Positions 10,756-41,996 of a stretch of DNA of 64,000 nt are shown piece by piece. Below the pieces are notes generated by a model. The model had not been told where the DNA came from. It saw nothing but the letters and a program-made list of their open reading frames with translations, and ran no database searches. Source of the stretch: Caldimonas sp. (GTDB lineage Bacteria > Pseudomonadota > Gammaproteobacteria > Burkholderiales > Burkholderiaceae_C); the NCBI GenBank assembly GCA_035995885.1, contig DASYKC010000161.1, positions 2,434-66,433 on the forward strand, given 5' to 3'. A program made the translations under genes and the position numbers. Numbering within the stretch: position 1 is the stretch's first letter; every line of letters starts with the position of its first letter.

Positions 10756-11592
10756 TCAGCCAGCGAGGCCCGATTTTAAGGGGACGAACCTGACGGCCTC
10801 GTGGACGCTGCGGGTGTAGCGATCGGCGTGGCGATCGACGACGACGAGCACCTGGCCGCCGCCCGCCTGCTGCACCGGCGAGACGAGCCGGCCGCCGACG
10901 GCGAGCTGGTCGAGCCAGGCTTGCGGCAGCTCGCTGCCGCCCGCCGCTGCAACGATGCTGTCGTAGGGCGCACCGGGCGGATGCCCGCGCATGCCGTCGC
11001 CGAAGACGAGGCGCAGTCGGCTGTCGCGCATCGGCGCGAGCAGCTCGCGTGCCTTGTCGTGCAGCGGCTTCAGCCGCTCGACCGAGACGACGCGCTTGCC
11101 GAGGCGGCAGAGGAGCGCCGCCTGGTAGCCGCAGCCGGTGCCGATCTCGAGGACCGTGCCGAGATCGCCCGCGGCCGCGGCACGCACGCCGCCGAACAGC
11201 AGCTCGAGCATGCGCGCGACCACCGACGGCTTCGAGATCGTCTGGCCGTGGCCGATCGGCAGGCTGGTGTCCTCGTAGGCCTGGGTGGCGAGGCCGGCAT
11301 CGACGAAAAGGTGGCGCGGCACGACCGCGAACGCGGCGAGGACGAGCGGGTGGGCGACGCCTTCGCTGCGCAGTCGCTCGACCATGCGCGCACGCACGTC
11401 GGCGGAGTCGAGGCCGAGGCCGACCGCGGGCGCGCGCCGGCCGGCGTCGGCATGCGCGGCAGCGACGTGGCGCTGCGGCCGGATCAGATCGCGCCCGCCG
11501 CGGCGGTTGGCCGTATTCTCCTTGCCGGGGGTCGCGCCGTCGAGTCGGCCGAGCGCGAGCGGGAACCTGCGAGCCGGCCGCTCGGCCGTCAT
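10756..11592 (-). CDS. pcm: Protein-L-isoaspartate O-methyltransferase
   Basis: [32 protein letters not shown]; ATGA overlap with surE stop. Confidence 0.93.
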
Positions 11593-34468: not shown

Positions 34469-34882
34469 ATGACGATGGACGCAGCCGCCCTGCAGGCGAC
34501 GCTCGACACGCTGGCGGCCGACTACGTGAAACGGCTGGGGCTGCGCGTCGAGTCGATCGAGCCGGGCCAGGTGACGATGAGCCTGCCGGTCTCGGCCGAG
34601 ATCGTCCACGCCGGCGGCGTCGTCTGCGGCCAGGCGATCATGGCTGCGGCGGACACCGCCATGCTGGTGGCAATGATCGCCCAGCTCGGTGAGTTCCGGC
34701 CGATGACGACGGTGCAGCTGCAGACGAGCTTTGTGAGGCCGGTGCCGAAGGATGCGCTTCGGATCAACGTCGTGGCGCGAGTGTTGCGCGCAGGGAAGAG
34801 TCTGTCGTATGGCGACGTCGAGTTCAAGACGGCCGATGGCAAGCTGGCGGCGCACGCGACGACGACGTACGCGTTGCTGTGA
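34469..34882 (+). CDS. PaaI-family thioesterase
   Basis: [18 protein letters not shown]; [12 protein letters not shown]; RAGKSL. Confidence 0.88.
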
Positions 34883-34956
34883 GCGAGCACCCGCCGCGGA
34901 ATGAGTAACGCCGGTCGCGCGCCTTGGCGTACCTTCCACCAAAACCACAGGCATTA

Positions 34957-34985
34957 TTGACACCGGACCTGGGAACGCGTACGTT
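34957..34985 (+). promoter_or_regulatory. Sigma70 promoter of the acyltransferase gene
   Basis: TTGACA (34957-34962), 17-nt spacer, TACGTT (34980-34985); GGGAGG RBS before ATG 35033. Confidence 0.6.
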
Positions 34986-35032
34986 CACTTTACGACCTGC
35001 GCACGCTGGGAACGTGCAAATCGGGAGGACGG

Positions 35033-35719
35033 ATGCGCACGGAGTTATTGAGCTTCACGCTGAGACGAGCTGATACCCATCGGGATCTTCTACGCGCGTG
35101 CGAAGTTCGAGCCGCGGCATACGGCTACAAGGTTCCGGCGTATCGAGAGTCGATGGCTCAGCCGGACGCGATTGACGCCAGCCCGTGGACTACTGTATTT
35201 CTGTGCGAGGACAAGCTTTCCGGCGAGGCGGTGGGGACGATGCGCGTTCAGACCCGCGAGCACGACCGGGGCGAGCTCGAGATGGAACGCTACGTCAAGC
35301 TACCAGAGTATCTGGAAAACGCTACGTGCACCGAAGTCACGCGCTTGGCGGCGCCGGTCGGATCCGATCCATTCGTGCGACTTGCCCTGTGGAAGGCCGC
35401 CTATTTGTTCGCTGCAAGCCAAGGAATAAGTTGGATCGTCATGAGCGTTCGCAAGCCTGCCCTCATCCGTGCGTACGAGCGGATGGGATCCAAGGACGTT
35501 TTCGCGAATCGGGCCGACGGATTCTTTCTGCCTTACGTAGGCAACATGCCGCACCGGATCTATGCGCTAGACATCGACAACTTCTACGGTTTTTGGAGCG
35601 ACAGCAAGCATCCGCTGCTCGAGTTCATGACGGCCACGAATCATGAAGACATCATCGTCGGTCGCCCGTCAGTGGACCGCCTGTCCATAAGAGGAGTCGG
35701 GCTCCGAGTCGTCGAGTGA
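35033..35719 (+). CDS. LuxI/FeeM-fold N-acyl transferase (putative N-acyl amino acid or acyl-signal synthase)
   Basis: EVRAAAYGY, DAID..TTVFL..GEAVGTMRV, TEVTRLA, AYLFAASQGI..IV...LIRAYERMG follow the motif order of acyl-ACP-dependent GNAT-fold synthases. Confidence 0.65.
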   Translation: MRTELLSFTLRRADTHRDLLRACEVRAAAYGYKVPAYRESMAQPDAIDASPWTTVFLCEDKLSGEAVGTMRVQTREHDRGELEMERYVKLPEYLENATCTEVTRLAAPVGSDPFVRLALWKAAYLFAASQGISWIVMSVRKPALIRAYERMGSKDVFANRADGFFLPYVGNMPHRIYALDIDNFYGFWSDSKHPLLEFMTATNHEDIIVGRPSVDRLSIRGVGLRVVE

Positions 35720-37660
35720 TTTGGCGTACTCGTAGAGGGGATGGTTTCGATTGCAAACCCCGTCCGCCGCGTACAAGGCAATCGTCTGCAGTAGCTGCTC
35801 CAAGGTAAACGGTTTCATCAACAGGCCGTCCATGCCCGCCTCGTAGCACTCTCGCCTGTCCTCGTCACTGGGGCTCGCGGTGAGCGCAACGATTGGGACG
35901 CTGGGCAACCCAATCCTCGTTTCGATCGCACGGATCTCGCGAGATGCCGTCGGCCCGTCCATTACCGGCATTCGACAATCCATGAAGACGAAATCCGGTC
36001 GTGGCTTGGCAAACGCAGCGGAGATCGCCTCCTTGCCATTGTTGGCGCGAACCACTTCGGCACCTATGTTCGCAAGGTTCGCCGTCGCGATCAACGCATT
36101 GACCTCGTTATCCTCAACCAAAAGGACTCGGTATCCCTCTCGAACGTGGGGTAGCTTCGGCTGCGGTTGAGCCGACTGATCCGACGTCGCGGGCGCTTCG
36201 GGAAGAATGGCGGTGAACGTGAACTGCGAACCGACGCCCACCGCGCTGCTGACGCCGACGTCGCCTCCCATCGCCTGGGCGATCTCGCGGGCGATGGTCA
36301 GGCCCAGGCCCGTTCCGTCTGCCGGTCGAGTCGCCGAGTCGTCCGCCTGTCGAAAGGCATCGAAAATGTGCGCGGCATCTTTCGTCGCGATGCCCGGACC
36401 GGTGTCTCTGATCTCAAAGGAAAACAGCTTCCCTTGACGCTGGACCTTCAGCACGACCAAGCCCGACTTGGTGAATTTCACCGCATTGCCGAGCAGGTTG
36501 TGGAGAACCTGGCGAACCCGCGCTGGGTCTCCAATCACCCGGCACGGGGTGTCGATTCGGATCGAACTGCTGAAGTCGAGACCTTTGCTGTCGCACCTCA
36601 GCTTGTACAGATCCGCAACATTGGCAAGCTCAAGCGCCAGATCAAAAGTTGCGTGACGCAGTTCCAAGCGACCAGACTCAATTCTCGAGATATCGAGTAA
36701 CGACCCTATGAGTTCTAGCAAATGCGTTCCGGAAGATTCCAGAAGTGCCAGACGATGCTGCACGACGGGATCAGCGGCGGTCTGCTTGCGAATTAGCTGG
36801 GTCAGGCCCAGGATCCCATGCAAAGGTGTACGGAGCTCATGACTCATGGTGCCGAGAAACAAGGACTTGACAGCCCCCTGACGTTTCACCTCGAGCAACG
36901 CCGCAGCGAGAGCTTCGGCATTGCGCGTTTCGCGCAGACGCGCCTCCTCCGTCGCCTCGTGCGCCAGGAACTCGCTTCTTAGACGACGTTCAGACGCGTA
37001 GGCGGTCACGATCGACTGCAGCAAGACCAGGATCGTGCCCAGCGAAACGAAGACTCCCAGTGCGTCGCCCCGAAGCGCCACTGCGACGGCAAGTGGAACC
37101 AGCATCGAGGTCACGTAGGCTACGGACGCGGCTGCCATGGTGTTGAACCCGTGCGTGGCCATCAATGCAACACTGCAGAGCACGGCACAAGTCAGGCATG
37201 CGAACTCACTTGGACCAAATGCGCACCATGCGCCTGCCGCACCCCAAATGGCGCCATCTAAAGCTAGTAGCACCAACGTCAGTTGACGAGAGAAACCATC
37301 CCTGACCATTGGCCAACTCGAGCGCGAGTACGCCAAGGCTGCCAAGACTCGAACGACCGAGATTGCGAGCTTCACGCCCAGCCAGACGTGCGTCGGGGTC
37401 CAGCCGAATGTCGGGGTCAGGAATGGAACGAGCAGTGCGGCAAGCACCGAGTTGATAACCGCCGCTCTGATGACGTGTTTTTGCACACCATCGAGTTGCA
37501 ATCTTTGAAATCGACTCTTCACCTCTCCGGTCAGAGCGTTTGAAGTGGGTTTCGACGGCGTTCCAATGCGCCGCAAAACAGACGGCAACACAGATGACAC
37601 ACCCAAATCAATCACTTGACAGTTCTGCTCGTTGATGCCGACTTGCGGTTCAGCCGTCAA
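35669..37660 (-). CDS. Membrane-bound hybrid histidine kinase (HisKA-HATPase-REC); start uncertain
   Basis: About 5-6 TM segments; H-box MSHELRTP, N-box NLLGNAVKFT, G1 DTGPGI, G2 GTGLGL; REC FMDCRMPVMDG. Confidence 0.92.
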   Translation of the reverse strand: MTAEPQVGINEQNCQVIDLGVSSVLPSVLRRIGTPSKPTSNALTGEVKSRFQRLQLDGVQKHVIRAAVINSVLAALLVPFLTPTFGWTPTHVWLGVKLAISVVRVLAALAYSRSSWPMVRDGFSRQLTLVLLALDGAIWGAAGAWCAFGPSEFACLTCAVLCSVALMATHGFNTMAAASVAYVTSMLVPLAVAVALRGDALGVFVSLGTILVLLQSIVTAYASERRLRSEFLAHEATEEARLRETRNAEALAAALLEVKRQGAVKSLFLGTMSHELRTPLHGILGLTQLIRKQTAADPVVQHRLALLESSGTHLLELIGSLLDISRIESGRLELRHATFDLALELANVADLYKLRCDSKGLDFSSSIRIDTPCRVIGDPARVRQVLHNLLGNAVKFTKSGLVVLKVQRQGKLFSFEIRDTGPGIATKDAAHIFDAFRQADDSATRPADGTGLGLTIAREIAQAMGGDVGVSSAVGVGSQFTFTAILPEAPATSDQSAQPQPKLPHVREGYRVLLVEDNEVNALIATANLANIGAEVVRANNGKEAISAAFAKPRPDFVFMDCRMPVMDGPTASREIRAIETRIGLPSVPIVALTASPSDEDRRECYEAGMDGLLMKPFTLEQLLQTIALYAADGVCNRNHPLYEYAKSLDDSEPDSSYGQAVH

Positions 37661-38110
37661 CTTGGCGTAACGGCGCAGGCCTTAAGCAATGACCGCGGCT
37701 CCCTCCGAGGCACTGTGTCGCCATCACATCGGCGCTTTCGAGGAGGCGCGAACGTGATTTTCTGCACGATTCAACCGCAGCTGCTCCTCTTGGCGCCACT
37801 GTTGCCGAGGCGAGCCAAATTCGCGTTGTTGATCATCAAAGGGTTGCATATGTCCTCCACGACGCGACGGGCCATGGCTAGTGAGTCACTATCGGCAGTT
37901 GCGCGCCAACTTTTAGTCCGTTTCGCGGCGCTGGACCTACAAGTGACATCGAAGCCTTCTACGGCTTGATTGGCACCACTTTGGACGACCCTGGGCTCGG
38001 CCTTTCCACGGCCGTTCTCCGCAGCGAGTTGTCCCCGCGCGCGGAGGTGCCTCGCGCTACCGTCTCGTGTCGTTCAAGAATGCCGCCGGTACGCACGACG
38101 CGACGCCGCC

Positions 38111-38998
38111 CTACCCGTCGCCGAGCACCGGTTCCCCTGCGGGCGCGCGGGAGCGACCGCGAATCCACATGCCGAAGGAAAGGCCGAACAGCACCATCGT
38201 GATCGAATAGACGGCCGCGGGCAGGGCGAATTGAGTGTCGCCCAACGTCGTCATCGCCACGTACATCGACAAGACTGCGCTTCTTATGCCGAGTTGGAAG
38301 GTGATGGCGATGCCGTTACCTCGGCCAAGCCCCCAGAGCTGGGAAAATCCGTAGCCCAAGCCGAGGCTCAGCAAGTTGAACAAGACGACGCTACCGCCAA
38401 CCTCGGTGAAACCACGAATCAGGGACTGCCACTCCTTGACGATGGCTCCTGCCGAAAAAAGGACAAGGACCAGAACGCTGAAGATTCGCATTGGCTTGTC
38501 GGCTCTTGTCGCAAAAGCGGGAAATCGCGCCCGCACCGCCATACCGAGGATGACTGGAATCACCAAGCTCGCCATCGTTTCCACGAGCTTTCCCGTGATC
38601 GACGGCATCGCTGTATCGCGGCTCGCGAAGTAGCTCAGCGACCAGCTGCAGATAAGAGGAAGCGTGAAGAGGCTGAGAGCAGTGTTGACTCCGGTGAGCG
38701 TGACATTGAGCGCGACGTTTCCACCAAAGACGTGGCTATACAAGTTTGACGAGATGCTTCCGGGCGCCGCAGCCAAGAGCATGAGTCCAACCGCATAAGG
38801 GGTCGGCAACCGCAATGCAACCGCAATGAGCAGTGCCACCAGAGGCAATATCACCATCTGCAGGGTGAGGGCGATCAACACCGCGCGTCGCTCGCCGAAT
38901 GCCCGACGGAAGTCCGCCAATTCAAGCGATAGCCCGAGACCGGCCATCACCACCGCGAGGGCGACGAACAGGAGCTGCACAGTGGCCTGAGTTGACAT
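38111..38998 (-). CDS. Bile acid:sodium symporter (BASS/SBF) family transporter
   Basis: MAGLGLSL, LTLQMVILP, APGSISSNLYS..FGGNVAL; ~9 hydrophobic segments. Confidence 0.87.
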   Translation of the reverse strand: MSTQATVQLLFVALAVVMAGLGLSLELADFRRAFGERRAVLIALTLQMVILPLVALLIAVALRLPTPYAVGLMLLAAAPGSISSNLYSHVFGGNVALNVTLTGVNTALSLFTLPLICSWSLSYFASRDTAMPSITGKLVETMASLVIPVILGMAVRARFPAFATRADKPMRIFSVLVLVLFSAGAIVKEWQSLIRGFTEVGGSVVLFNLLSLGLGYGFSQLWGLGRGNGIAITFQLGIRSAVLSMYVAMTTLGDTQFALPAAVYSITMVLFGLSFGMWIRGRSRAPAGEPVLGDG

Positions 38999-39299
38999 TG
39001 ACAAGAGCGCAGACGATCGCCGTGATTGCAACGCTCCGACTTCTAACCTGCTCAATCGCGTAGCGGCTCAATTCTGTGTGCACGACCGTCAAATAATCAC
39101 GCAAGACGCGGCTTGTCGAAGATGAAGCCTTGTGCGGTAGTTCAGCGTCCAGCAAGCGGGAGCGTCAAACGCAGACGATGCCTCGGACAGTCCCTCGCCC
39201 GGTTTTCGCCCACTACAACGCCGCCCAGGCGAGACGTAGACTAGGAATCGAGAGCGATCCAGCCGATACGACAGGTCGGCCTCGACCCGGAAGCCAAGG

Positions 39300-41228
39300 A
39301 TGAACATGCCATCGCGTCAGCAGGCCAATCGTCCCAATCGATATCGGTTCACGGACGAGGAGTTCCTCGAGATCTATCGCAGGCCAGGTGCCCGCTACCT
39401 CGGCATCGCTTGCCTGTTCGGCGCCCTCGGAGCGCTTTCGTTCTATCTGATCGACGCCATCGGCATCGGACACCCGCTGATCGGCGGTATCCAAAGCATG
39501 CGCCTTGCGCTGGCCGGCGCCCTTTCCTCCCTTGCAACCTTCATTTGGTTTTCGCCGCGGCAGATCGCCAAGCACTACGCACCCATATTCGGCGGCTTCA
39601 CCAGCCTCGCCGTCGCGATCAGCGCGTATATCTCGTACCAAGGGCACTTGAAGGACCCACCGCTCGAGCTCCTCTACTCAGTGGACATGACCCTCGTCCT
39701 TTGCATCATCGTCATCTTCGGTTTCAGTCGACTTACGTCATTTTCCACGACGGTTCTGACGAGCAGTGTCGCTGTTGCAATGATTGGCTTTCTCTGGCTG
39801 CTCGAGGGCACAGATGCACGTCAACTCATGCGGATGACGACCCATCTCTCGATCATCACGGCCTGCTGCTTTTCGCTTCATCTCAGCATTCAGCGGCGCG
39901 AGTGGGAATTGTTTCTGCTTGCCAAGGAGAATCTGCGCCGAAACAAATACGCCGCCGAGCTCGAGCGCGCCAAGAGCGCGGCCGAGGACGCCGACGCTGC
40001 CAAGTCCCGGTTTCTCGCGAACATGAGTTACGAGATTCGAACACCGATGAATGGAGTCTTGCAAATACTCGACGTCGTAGGCGATCACGCAAAGGACGAC
40101 GATCGGCTACTCATAGAACAGGGCCGCAAGTCGGGTCATGCCCTGCTGCGAATCCTGAACAGCATCCTCGACTATTCCAAGCTGTCGCATGGAGCCGCGG
40201 GCGTCGAGATCTCCGCCGTCGACATCGCGGACGTCTGCCGCACCGTGCTGGATCTTCATGTCGCCGCGGCGACGACGAAGGGGATCGACCTGCGCTCGCA
40301 GTTGGACTTGCCTCCGGGCGGCGCGTCGCGGGTGCTTACCGATGAAGTCAAGCTGTTCGAGATCATCAACAACCTGCTGTCGAACGCCCTGAAGTTCACT
40401 CAGGTCGGATATGTCGATCTCAACGTCCAGCTCCTCCTTCCCGTTCCGGACAAGTTCCCGCACGCTGCCCTGGAGATCCGCGTTCGCGATTCCGGGCCGG
40501 GAATATCGACACTCGACCAGGCAAGGGTCTTCTTGCCCTTCTTCCAACGTGATGCCGCGCGCAACCCCCGTCACGGTGGCACCGGCTTGGGTCTGGCCAT
40601 CGTCAAGGAACTCGCGGAGAAGTTGCATGGTCGGGTTCGGGTGGAGAGCGAAGAAGGGCTCGGAAGCTTCTTCGAAGTTCGACTTCCGGTCACCCTGTCC
40701 GAGACCTCGAGTCACGCTGACGCGCGGTCCACGAGTCATCTGCCGGAAGCGGAGAGGGGGTTGACGAGGAGCTCGGAGGTCACGCAGAGCGAGTTCAGCG
40801 GTCGCTCCCTGCTGATCGTCGATGACAACGAGCTCAATGCCATGCTCGCATCGCGCCTGATGCAGGCAATGGGCTTTGAGGTCCAGCTCGCCGAGAACGG
40901 CGCTGTCGCCCTCGAGCTCTTCGCGAAGAAGCGCTTCGATCTCGTTCTGATGGACTGTCAGATGCCGGTGCTCGACGGGTACGAGGCGACCAAGCGAATT
41001 CGCGAGCTGGAAGCAAGGACCTCGACGCTGCGTACCCCAGTTATCGCCATCACTGCGTACACGCTGTCCGGCGACCGGGAGAAATGCCTCGCCTCCGGCA
41101 TGGACGACTATCTCGCCAAGCCCTATTCGGTTCAGGACCTTCGCCCGAAGCTCGACCGCTGGCTTGGACGGACTGTGTCTCCAACGGGACCGATCCGCAA
41201 CCCGGCAATCAGCAAACAAGCACTTTGA
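39300..41228 (+). CDS. Membrane-bound hybrid histidine kinase-like protein with Tyr replacing the H-box His
   Basis: About 6 TM segments; FLANMSYEIRTP, NLLSNALKFT, DSGPGI, GTGLGL; REC LMDCQMPVLDG. Confidence 0.9.
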   Translation: MNMPSRQQANRPNRYRFTDEEFLEIYRRPGARYLGIACLFGALGALSFYLIDAIGIGHPLIGGIQSMRLALAGALSSLATFIWFSPRQIAKHYAPIFGGFTSLAVAISAYISYQGHLKDPPLELLYSVDMTLVLCIIVIFGFSRLTSFSTTVLTSSVAVAMIGFLWLLEGTDARQLMRMTTHLSIITACCFSLHLSIQRREWELFLLAKENLRRNKYAAELERAKSAAEDADAAKSRFLANMSYEIRTPMNGVLQILDVVGDHAKDDDRLLIEQGRKSGHALLRILNSILDYSKLSHGAAGVEISAVDIADVCRTVLDLHVAAATTKGIDLRSQLDLPPGGASRVLTDEVKLFEIINNLLSNALKFTQVGYVDLNVQLLLPVPDKFPHAALEIRVRDSGPGISTLDQARVFLPFFQRDAARNPRHGGTGLGLAIVKELAEKLHGRVRVESEEGLGSFFEVRLPVTLSETSSHADARSTSHLPEAERGLTRSSEVTQSEFSGRSLLIVDDNELNAMLASRLMQAMGFEVQLAENGAVALELFAKKRFDLVLMDCQMPVLDGYEATKRIRELEARTSTLRTPVIAITAYTLSGDREKCLASGMDDYLAKPYSVQDLRPKLDRWLGRTVSPTGPIRNPAISKQAL

Positions 41229-41238
41229 GTGGCGACGC

Positions 41239-41898
41239 TCAGCGCTTGATATCCAGCTCGCCGTAGAGCCGCTCGACCAGGGCACGCAGGCGTTCGAGCT
41301 CGGTCTCCGCCATCGCCACCCTCGCCTTCAGCGTCGCCAGCTCGCTCACCGGCACGATCGTCTCGTCGTCGCTCGCCGCCGTGAACACGCTCAGGTCGAC
41401 TGGGCCGCCGAGGAGATGGGCCCAGCGCTGCTCGCGGGCGCCCGGGGCGCGCGGCAGCTTGAGCGCGAGCGGACCGCCCTTCTCTTGCGCGCGCGCCGCC
41501 AGCTCGTCGAGGAAGCCCTCGACCGCCGAGACGTCGGCGAAGCGATGCAGACGGTCGCTCGCCGCGCGCAGCTCCGACGCGGTCTGCGGGCCGCGCAGCA
41601 TCAGCGTCGCCAGCAAGGCGACCGACTGCGACGGCAAGCCCAGCACGCGGCCCAGGTTGTGCTCGTAGCGGGCGACGCGCGAGCCGCTCGACTCGAACGC
41701 GAGCGACAGCGACTTCAGGGCGTCGACCGCGCCCTGCACCTCGGCCTCGCTCGCCGCAAGCACCGGGTCGCGCGCCGTCTTCTGGTTGCAGCCGAGCGTG
41801 AGCGTGTTCAGCGACAGCGGATAGCTGTCGGGCACGGTCAGCGACTTCTCGACGAGCACGCCGAGCGCGCGCAATTCGAGCAACGACAGCGGCCGCAT
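41239..41898 (-). CDS. YceH/DUF480-family protein (alternative GTG at 41901)
   Basis: RALGVLVEK...PDSYPLSLN...CNQKTARDPV; LMLRGPQT; REQRWAHL. Confidence 0.85.
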   Translation of the reverse strand: MRPLSLLELRALGVLVEKSLTVPDSYPLSLNTLTLGCNQKTARDPVLAASEAEVQGAVDALKSLSLAFESSGSRVARYEHNLGRVLGLPSQSVALLATLMLRGPQTASELRAASDRLHRFADVSAVEGFLDELAARAQEKGGPLALKLPRAPGAREQRWAHLLGGPVDLSVFTAASDDETIVPVSELATLKARVAMAETELERLRALVERLYGELDIKR

Positions 41899-41996
41899 CA
41901 CGGCAAAGGGTCGCTCGCCCGGACGCCGCGCCGCGCCGAAACCGGCCGCGTCACCTCGCCGGGCAACGAACGCAGTGAGGCGCGGTCGAGCGCCAC
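41898..41996 (-). other. Intergenic 32-aa mini-ORF / repeat-like element (copy B)
   Basis: GTG overlaps the SDR TAG, and its TGA overlaps the yceH start; encodes VALDRASLRSLPGEVTRPVSARRGVRASDPLP. Confidence 0.5.

Follow-up and report, generated by a model that had tools for sequence, protein, structure and literature searches.

A convergent acyltransferase–hybrid kinase gene pair as a candidate make-and-sense signalling module in a Caldimonas genome

The thioesterase–yceH interval

We analysed a 64,000-nucleotide stretch of a Caldimonas genome (positions 2,434 to 66,433 of contig DASYKC010000161.1, assembly GCA_035995885.1; hereafter the window) and, within it, a block of four genes. A preliminary description had proposed that this block encodes an acyl-signal module consisting of a LuxI/FeeM-like synthase, two hybrid histidine kinases, one or both of which would sense its product, and a transporter. 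Our main subject is the convergent gene pair formed by the proposed synthase (SYN) and the first of the kinases (HK1), a candidate module for making and sensing a signal. The genome was assembled from a soil metagenome (4.57 Mb in 245 contigs, 96.8% complete), and the closest relatives of the locus carry the labels Caldimonas, Rhizobacter and Rubrivivax, all within the Sphaerotilaceae (Burkholderiales).

The interval between a thioesterase gene and yceH contains four genes. SYN (35033..35719, + strand) encodes a protein of 228 amino acids, a GNAT-superfamily acyltransferase of an unnamed family. Its 3' end overlaps that of HK1 (35669..37660, − strand; an open reading frame, or ORF, of 663 residues) by 51 nucleotides (35669..35719), as read from the ORF coordinates. 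Next come a gene for a BASS/SBF-family transporter of 314 amino acids (38111..39055, − strand) and the second hybrid kinase, HK2 (39300..41228, + strand; 642 amino acids). The G+C content is 0.597 at positions 34950-41230 vs 0.698 in the remaining window, and at third codon positions it is 0.68-0.75 in the four module genes vs 0.90-0.94 in the flanking genes. The low G+C of the block and the places of its genes had therefore been described correctly.

Both boundary genes are high-G+C core genes that lie outside the module. On the left (34478..34882, + strand; third-position G+C 0.90), matches to Pfam 4HBT (E 3.9e-11) and TIGR00369 (50.6 bits) identify a hotdog-fold thioesterase. The earlier label of PaaI is too specific, since the PaaI model reaches only 25 bits against a cut-off of 118.9. 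The thioesterase flank recurs at four related loci (L001, L009, L011 and L075 in our numbering); given its core-genome composition and its presence at few loci only, we ruled it out as a functional partner. On the right, yceH (DUF480; 41239..41901, − strand; third-position G+C 0.94) matches PF04337 at E 4.1e-54. There is no other sizeable gene inside the 34900-41230 block and therefore no LuxR, Hpt or DNA-binding regulator, in agreement with the preliminary description. Rfam and promoter/terminator scans of this island found nothing above background.

Both kinases carry HisKA, HATPase_c and Response_reg domains and no Hpt domain (Pfam and NCBIfam), together with about six hydrophobic helices by hydropathy, which bears out their reading as multi-pass hybrid kinases. 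The linker of the form xxRR...(E/L)FL that had been noted at the end of both membrane regions is also there, as ...ASERRLRSEFLAHE in HK1 and ...SIQRREWELFLLAKE in HK2. The N-terminal regions of both proteins, the HK1 sensor included, have no match in Pfam and none in NCBIfam among the 25 models listed per kinase. The longest HK1 ORF begins at TTG 37660, and the alignment of homologs makes a start at TTG 37606 or GTG 37600 likelier. Its phospho-acceptor is His274 in MSHELRTP (codon 36841-36839), and its receiver carries Asp561 in FVFMDCRMP. In the AlphaFold model of the HK1 sensor (predicted local distance difference test score, pLDDT, 88.2), six long helices are joined by loops of 1-4 residues, and the last helix continues into the signalling helix. 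Invariant polar residues lie within the helices (D117, W121, T151, R179, D181 and Q197, counted from the 37606 start). As modelled, this architecture suits a ligand that resides in the bilayer. A link to a solved receptor was discarded, as the sensor model found no meaningful match in the PDB (best E 0.07, template-modelling score, TM, 0.23).

SYN and its relatives

The SYN protein of the window has no Pfam or NCBIfam match at E<=0.1. Searches of PDB sequences with the protein or with its family profile were likewise set aside, giving chance-level hits only (E 0.4 for a chitotriosidase, E 1.2 for a D-alanine ligase). Nevertheless, SYN has 139 homologs at 43-90% identity, named 'hypothetical protein' wherever a name exists, and a profile search of 1.8 billion representatives returned 687 clusters at 50% identity. 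Judging by these sequences, SYN is a real, conserved gene. The FeeM model PF21926 matches 10 of 26 SYN relatives (best E 2.1e-9), the window protein itself being unmatched, and reaches 19.4 bits (cut-off 27) on the protein of a divergent clade, SYN-B, at locus L075. The LuxI model PF00765 (Autoind_synth) has no match at E<=10 in the window SYN and 25 relatives.

An AlphaFold (AF2) model of SYN built from the family alignment (pLDDT 88.5) is predicted to have a FeeM-like three-dimensional fold. In a Foldseek search against the PDB, the top match is FeeM 2g0b (E 2.9e-9, TM 0.59/0.70). The six best matches are all 2g0b chains, with E from 2.9e-9 to 2.7e-8 and TM of 0.53-0.59 (query) and 0.64-0.70 (target), and the acyl-homoserine lactone synthase EsaI appears at rank 45. 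We also compared alignments of the SYN family by hhalign with FeeM-family and LuxI-family alignments built from genomes of the same phylum and order. SYN and FeeM align with a probability of 96.3% (E 1.9e-9, 180 columns), SYN and LuxI with 93.1% (E 3.3e-7, 134 columns), and FeeM and LuxI with 95.2%. Identity between the window SYN and FeeM is 17-20%.

Eight SYN residues are invariant over 65 sequences (R26, Y30, D48, G68, R71, K121, R140 and H204), and five more are kept in at least 97% of them (E101, R104, Y148, H174 and D206). R71, E101 and R104 align to the LuxI blocks 'GC.RLLPT' and 'WElsRFA', while an acidic residue at position 45 forms with the invariant D48 an acidic [DE]-x-x-D block as in LuxI. 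The charged residues of the LuxI catalytic core, in LuxI numbering, are thus present in SYN (Arg ~70, Glu ~101/Arg ~104 and the acidic N-terminal block).

From sequence and model, SYN is assigned to the group of acyl-acyl carrier protein (acyl-ACP) N-acyltransferases with the LuxI/FeeM fold. The fold, the PF21926 matches of its relatives and the hhalign results therefore point to a third family of this group, closest to FeeM; SYN is best described as a sister family of FeeM, more distant from LuxI. The LuxI/FeeM likeness that had been read from motifs at 35033-35719 is thus borne out through relatives, profile–profile comparison and structure, although direct Pfam and NCBIfam scans do not detect it.

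FeeM (PF21926; PDB 2G0B) is closest in fold and profile and, like SYN, is a single-domain protein of similar size; what sets SYN apart is its lack of a PF21926 match and its low identity. LuxI (PF00765; EsaI, 1KZF) is a remote homolog, to which SYN aligns at Arg71, Glu101, Arg104 and the acidic block. However, none of the 26 SYN members matches the LuxI profile, and the module has no LuxR-type receptor; the partner of SYN is instead a membrane kinase or a cyclic di-GMP (c-di-GMP) enzyme, and nothing points to S-adenosylmethionine as a substrate. On the profile test and the lack of a LuxR, SYN is not a LuxI-family member. By homology, its predicted chemistry is the formation of an amide from a fatty acyl thioester and an amino group.

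A profile search of the window genome found no canonical LuxI, which we count in favour of the signalling role considered below. The genome (G000 in our numbering) does have a FeeM-family gene (G000:C19:5541-5987; locus L094 1366-2124) beside a family-1 glycoside hydrolase. This gene matches PF21926 at E 1.1e-46 in the genome search and 1.4e-46 as a translated ORF, and is unrelated to the module. The window genome thus carries one true FeeM plus two SYN genes.

Pairing of SYN with membrane sensors

The preliminary description had suggested neighbourhood analysis as a test of its proposal. We pooled 68 SYN loci, of which 66 are distinct. At 62 of these, a multi-pass membrane signalling protein adjoins SYN: a hybrid kinase at 42 (39 with an HK1-type and three, L073-L075, with an HK2-type sensor) and a 7TMR-DISM_7TM-PAS-GGDEF-EAL protein of ~1000 amino acids at 20. 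No LuxR-like neighbour is conserved over the 66 loci. Among the closest relatives, drawn from contigs of one genome per species, all 18 loci have a kinase with an HK1-homologous membrane domain convergent to SYN. The reverse search used the HK1 sensor region alone against 301 genomes of the same GTDB family, counting matches at E<=1e-15 as strong. Of the 24 strong matches, 21 lie within 2 kb of SYN, two are at contig ends and one is an orphan. Linkage in both directions therefore makes HK1 the cognate partner of SYN.

The proposed partnership with kinases thus needs to be qualified in two ways. It holds for HK1 (18/18 close loci) but not for HK2, whose type of sensor occurs at 2/18 close loci and elsewhere pairs with another SYN clade. 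It also holds for 42 of the 66 loci, while the sister clade pairs with 7TMR-DISM GGDEF-EAL proteins, so that the theme is 'synthase plus membrane sensor' rather than 'synthase plus kinase'.

A maximum-likelihood tree of 65 SYN proteins has two clades (support 100/99). The first is coupled to HK1-type kinases (38 sequences, plus three without a partner), and the second to GGDEF-EAL proteins (20), with the three HK2-coupled sequences nested inside it as a monophyletic group (100/98). The partner label changes 5 times on this tree vs 23.6 times in shuffles, and 0/200 shuffles were as low. Chance adjacency of SYN and sensor is rejected on the forward and reverse linkage and on the tracking of the tree by partner type. 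In the HK1 clade, SYN proteins that are further apart also have sensor domains that are further apart (r 0.93 between the distances; partial r 0.70 when controlling for the kinase core, reached by 0/2000 permutations). This is consistent with co-evolution, although shared descent inflates the correlation.

The partner sensors are not detectably homologous to each other. Comparisons by hhalign among the HK1, HK2 and 7TMR-DISM sensor regions gave probabilities of at most 0.2% (0.1% for HK1 against HK2), and the idea of one receptor fold shared by the three partner types was dropped. The SYN family is therefore combined with unrelated receptors and with two outputs, phosphorelay and c-di-GMP. This bears on whether SYN might instead be a protein acyltransferase that modifies the neighbouring sensor or some other protein, as toxin-activating acyltransferases or lysine acetyltransferases do. 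Its GNAT fold, the many protein or polyamine N-acetyltransferases among the next-best Foldseek matches and the tight pairing with one protein partner would all fit. We nevertheless consider such a role very improbable: the best sequence and structure relations are to the small-molecule N-acyl synthases FeeM and LuxI, with the Arg/Glu/Arg core kept, and the three partner families share no detectable sensor segment that could serve as a common substrate.

We also examined how the paired genes are arranged. SYN and HK1 overlap by 30-99 nucleotides in 20/20 distinct loci of the window's subclade, the codons concerned encoding poorly conserved, low-confidence tails of both proteins. At more distant kinase-coupled loci the ends mostly abut, ranging from a 39-nucleotide gap to a 12-nucleotide overlap, with outliers both ways. 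The genes are convergent at 39/44 kinase-coupled loci, 11/20 GGDEF-EAL-coupled pairs and 50/64 partnered loci overall. A convergent arrangement with overlapping 3' ends is known for some luxI/luxR pairs such as esaI/esaR, and SYN/HK1 resembles these.

The same data speak to the suggestion that SYN and its sensor are related by adjacency only. The sensor would then answer an unrelated cue, controlling SYN or being co-regulated with it, and the product of SYN, a secondary metabolite or biosurfactant, would go unsensed. N-acyl amino acids are surfactants and antibiotics, and the products of FeeM-type enzymes were originally discovered as long-chain N-acyl amino acids with antibacterial activity. 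Gene neighbourhood alone gives no direction to a relation, and three unrelated partner families would be expected if any membrane regulator will do. However, most of the pairs are convergent and so cannot share an operon or a promoter, and neither hybrid kinases nor GGDEF-EAL proteins are DNA-binding, which rules out direct control of the neighbouring gene by them. Moreover, partner type tracks the SYN clade, and sensor divergence tracks SYN beyond the kinase core. We regard an association of this kind as fairly unlikely.

Several known systems combine a lipid-like signal with a membrane kinase as its reader, namely LuxM/LuxN and CqsA/CqsS of Vibrio, LqsA/LqsS/LqsT of Legionella, RpfF/RpfC of Xanthomonas and PhcB/PhcS of Ralstonia. 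By analogy, the module resembles these systems but is a member of none. It shares with them a synthase gene beside a multi-pass kinase without a periplasmic domain, and the occurrence of several pairs plus orphan receptors in one genome; its HisKA-HATPase-REC kinases would need a separate Hpt protein, much as LuxN or CqsS feed LuxU. It differs in its enzyme, SYN being a GNAT rather than a LuxM/AinS protein, a CqsA aminotransferase-like enzyme, a crotonase or a methyltransferase. It also differs in its sensors, which match no curated model and show no profile homology to those of LuxN or CqsS, and in having a sister clade with output through GGDEF-EAL rather than a phosphorelay. The partner in that clade has the architecture of 7TMR-DISM (PF07695) receptors with GGDEF/EAL domains, a type absent from the window. 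Our literature searches found neither a dedicated neighbouring acyltransferase described for 7TMR-DISM proteins nor FeeM-type genes reported as paired with membrane sensors. In full-text searches, no paper connected N-acyl amino acid synthases with sensor kinases, with GGDEF proteins or with 7TMR-DISM receptors.

The best-supported reading of these sequence data, and the one towards which we lean with some reserve, is that SYN makes and HK1 senses a signal, the two genes together constituting a signalling module. In the chemistry, diffusibility, ligand–receptor relation and downstream relay that we infer for the pair, SYN would act in the cytoplasm, transferring a fatty acyl chain from acyl-ACP or acyl-coenzyme A to the amino group of a small acceptor, such as an amino acid or, less likely, S-adenosylmethionine. 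The product, an amphipathic N-acyl compound, would enter the membrane or pass through it, and the six-helix sensor of HK1, which lacks a periplasmic domain, would read it inside the bilayer. Sensing would switch the kinase/phosphatase balance of HK1, and phosphate would pass from His274 to Asp561, then to an unlinked Hpt protein and on to a response regulator elsewhere in the genome. The transporter may be an optional helper that exports an anionic lipid or imports a precursor, and HK2 may be a second kind of receptor, the synthase clade that goes with it being absent from the window genome.

Several observations count against a make-and-sense module. SYN itself scores against no curated model, four of the 66 distinct loci have no adjacent sensor (one lies beside an insertion sequence remnant), and orphan HK1-type and HK2-type sensors exist. 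Adjacency would be expected equally if the sensor merely regulates the enzyme gene, and the distance correlation owes part of its strength to shared descent. With three non-homologous sensor families, a single conserved ligand pocket cannot be argued. There is no sign that the compound is released from the cell, so that its action may be autocrine or confined to the membrane rather than that of a quorum signal. Finally, the Hpt and response regulator of the relay are only presumed. Seven Hpt-domain matches occur elsewhere in the window genome, none of them linked to the module. One cluster (G000:C14:32782-36045; locus L022) combines a hybrid kinase with HATPase and two receiver matches, a stand-alone Hpt protein of 113 amino acids and a receiver protein of 196 amino acids. 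It is a possible relay for hybrid kinases that, like HK1, lack an Hpt domain.

Distribution, HK2 and the transporter

The SYN profile matches 80 of the 301 genomes of the same GTDB family (27%; 60/201 genera). Across a sample of the phylum it matches 3/301 genomes, one of which is the window's own, and a match in another family of the order again has a GGDEF-EAL partner. Module G+C is below that of the flanks at 18/18 loci examined. Another complete SYN/HK1 pair lies elsewhere in the window genome (G000:C152:23701-26127; locus L056 6002-8539) and is convergent with a 57-nucleotide overlap. This second SYN belongs to a different subclade and is 44% identical to the first, and the genome therefore probably has two separate channels.

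The thioesterase–yceH site itself holds different cassettes in different genomes. It is occupied by a SYN-A/HK1 pair in the window and at L001, L009 and L011. In G285, a genome of the same genus, the site (L075 3837-9116) instead holds a SYN-B gene, an HK2-type kinase and a single-domain receiver of 145 amino acids. This SYN-B is 27% identical to the window SYN and is transcribed divergently from the kinase, and G285 has its own SYN-A/HK1 pair elsewhere in the genome. L075 is thus a case of cassette replacement at one chromosomal site within a genus. With its multiple pairs, its orphan receptors and the replacement of cassettes, the system recalls variable signalling loci.

This pattern helps in weighing a further alternative, in which SYN is an OlsB-like enzyme that makes a structural aminolipid, and the sensor monitors and adjusts the envelope with no cell-to-cell signal. 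OlsB and related aminolipid synthases share the acyl-ACP N-acyltransferase fold group. A sensor that lies wholly within the membrane, as modelled for HK1, would also suit the sensing of bilayer composition, and no dedicated exporter is conserved, the BASS transporter being accessory. On the other hand, the OlsB-type Pfam family is unmatched in 26/26 SYN members, and no OlsA-like second acyltransferase is conserved beside SYN. The patchy distribution and the low G+C of all 18 modules look like variable signalling loci rather than housekeeping lipid synthesis, as do the two paralogous pairs in one genome and the replacement of cassettes at one site. We therefore think aminolipid remodelling unlikely.

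HK2 differs from HK1 in the residue on which a phosphorelay would depend. In its H-box, FLANMSYEIRTP, Tyr244 stands where the phospho-acceptor His belongs (TAC codon, 40029..40031, + strand, read directly), while the receiver Asp552 is present. Seven other HK2-type kinases (L001, L002, L073, L074, L075, L112 and L113) have MSHE at this position, making HK2 the only Tyr-bearing member of eight. A change of one base (CAC to TAC) accounts for the substitution, which is confined to the window genome. Four other soil metagenomes compared with the island yielded short, low-depth fragments only, none informative at 40029-40031. Judged by its sequence, an HK2 without the phospho-acceptor can at most act through its receiver, as a phosphatase or as a ligand sink.

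HK2-type sensors are found in 5/301 related genomes. At loci L073-L075, in three genomes, the HK2-type kinase adjoins the distinct SYN-B clade. The window genome has only two SYN matches, neither of them SYN-B, a clade that the profile detects elsewhere at E 5e-32; HK2 is therefore an orphan receptor here. The alignment of the LuxN_Vibrio model to HK2 covers only residues 233-624, the kinase core and receiver. Other orphans have intact H-boxes, namely the HK1-type kinases L114 (G071:C43) and L115 (G176:C1) and the HK2-type kinases L112 (G000:C41, a further HK2-like kinase of the window genome) and L113 (G129:C20). None of the four has a SYN within several kb, and G071 has none genome-wide. Such orphan HK1- and HK2-type kinases are analogous to LuxR solos.

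Taken further, these observations allow a broader proposal, which we put forward tentatively and with less confidence than the module itself. The SYN family may be a hitherto unrecognised, lineage-restricted class of autoinducer-type synthases in the Burkholderiales (Sphaerotilaceae/Comamonadaceae-like bacteria). Receptors that can replace one another, either of two unrelated hybrid kinases with six membrane helices or a 7TMR-DISM c-di-GMP enzyme, would sense the N-acyl products directly within the membrane. Cassettes would be swapped at hotspots such as the thioesterase–yceH site to give 'pherotype'-like dialects, with HK2-like orphans as eavesdropping receptors. Cell-to-cell signalling is poorly charted in Sphaerotilaceae/Comamonadaceae-type betaproteobacteria of soil, water and roots. 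If the proposal is true, a 'hypothetical' synthase family present in about a quarter of genomes would name a new signal chemistry together with its receptors, and ligands would be assigned to three orphan families of membrane sensors, including a 7TMR-DISM subgroup. If the family is indeed wired to both phosphorelay and c-di-GMP receptors, it would be a natural case of one synthase family with different output pathways. The SYN-HK1-BASS version is present in a cultured isolate, Rhizobacter sp. Root404 (NZ_LMDS01000004.1; SYN ortholog at locus L006 10001-10666), which makes these ideas directly testable.

The transporter is confirmed as a BASS-family protein by PF01758 (SBF; E 1.2e-28, 100.5 bits vs a cut-off of 24.3); TIGR00841 (bass) gives 154.7 bits vs a cut-off of 326, and PanS 80 bits vs 400. 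The gene is present at 8/18 close loci, or 9/19 counting the window. It is limited to part of the window's clade and absent from the clades coupled to diguanylate cyclases (GGDEF-EAL) and to HK2. Its proposed place in the module is therefore that of an accessory member. One speculation that makes chemical sense is that it moves anionic amphiphiles, for example an N-acyl amino acid, a molecule similar to a conjugated bile salt. In the gap of ~450-500 bp between the BASS gene and HK1, an ORF of 41 amino acids with a GGAGGA site (37727-37849, − strand) is probably no gene; neither the peptide nor the DNA of the gap is conserved at any related locus.

Two related loci are worth noting for their sequence records. 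At L012 (10634-11855, − strand), from a long-read metagenome-assembled genome, the HK1-type kinase is in two frames, split near 11360, whereas at L010, from another such genome with an identical SYN protein, the kinase is intact. Either the gene is a frameshifted pseudogene or the assembly is in error. L001 (JBBQVV010000398.1, 6560 bp) has the same thioesterase-SYN-HK1-BASS-HK2 order as the window in a genome binned as 'Chthonomonadales' (Armatimonadota). The contig, whose SYN is 83% identical to that of the window, is probably a betaproteobacterial one placed in the wrong bin rather than a case of cross-phylum transfer.

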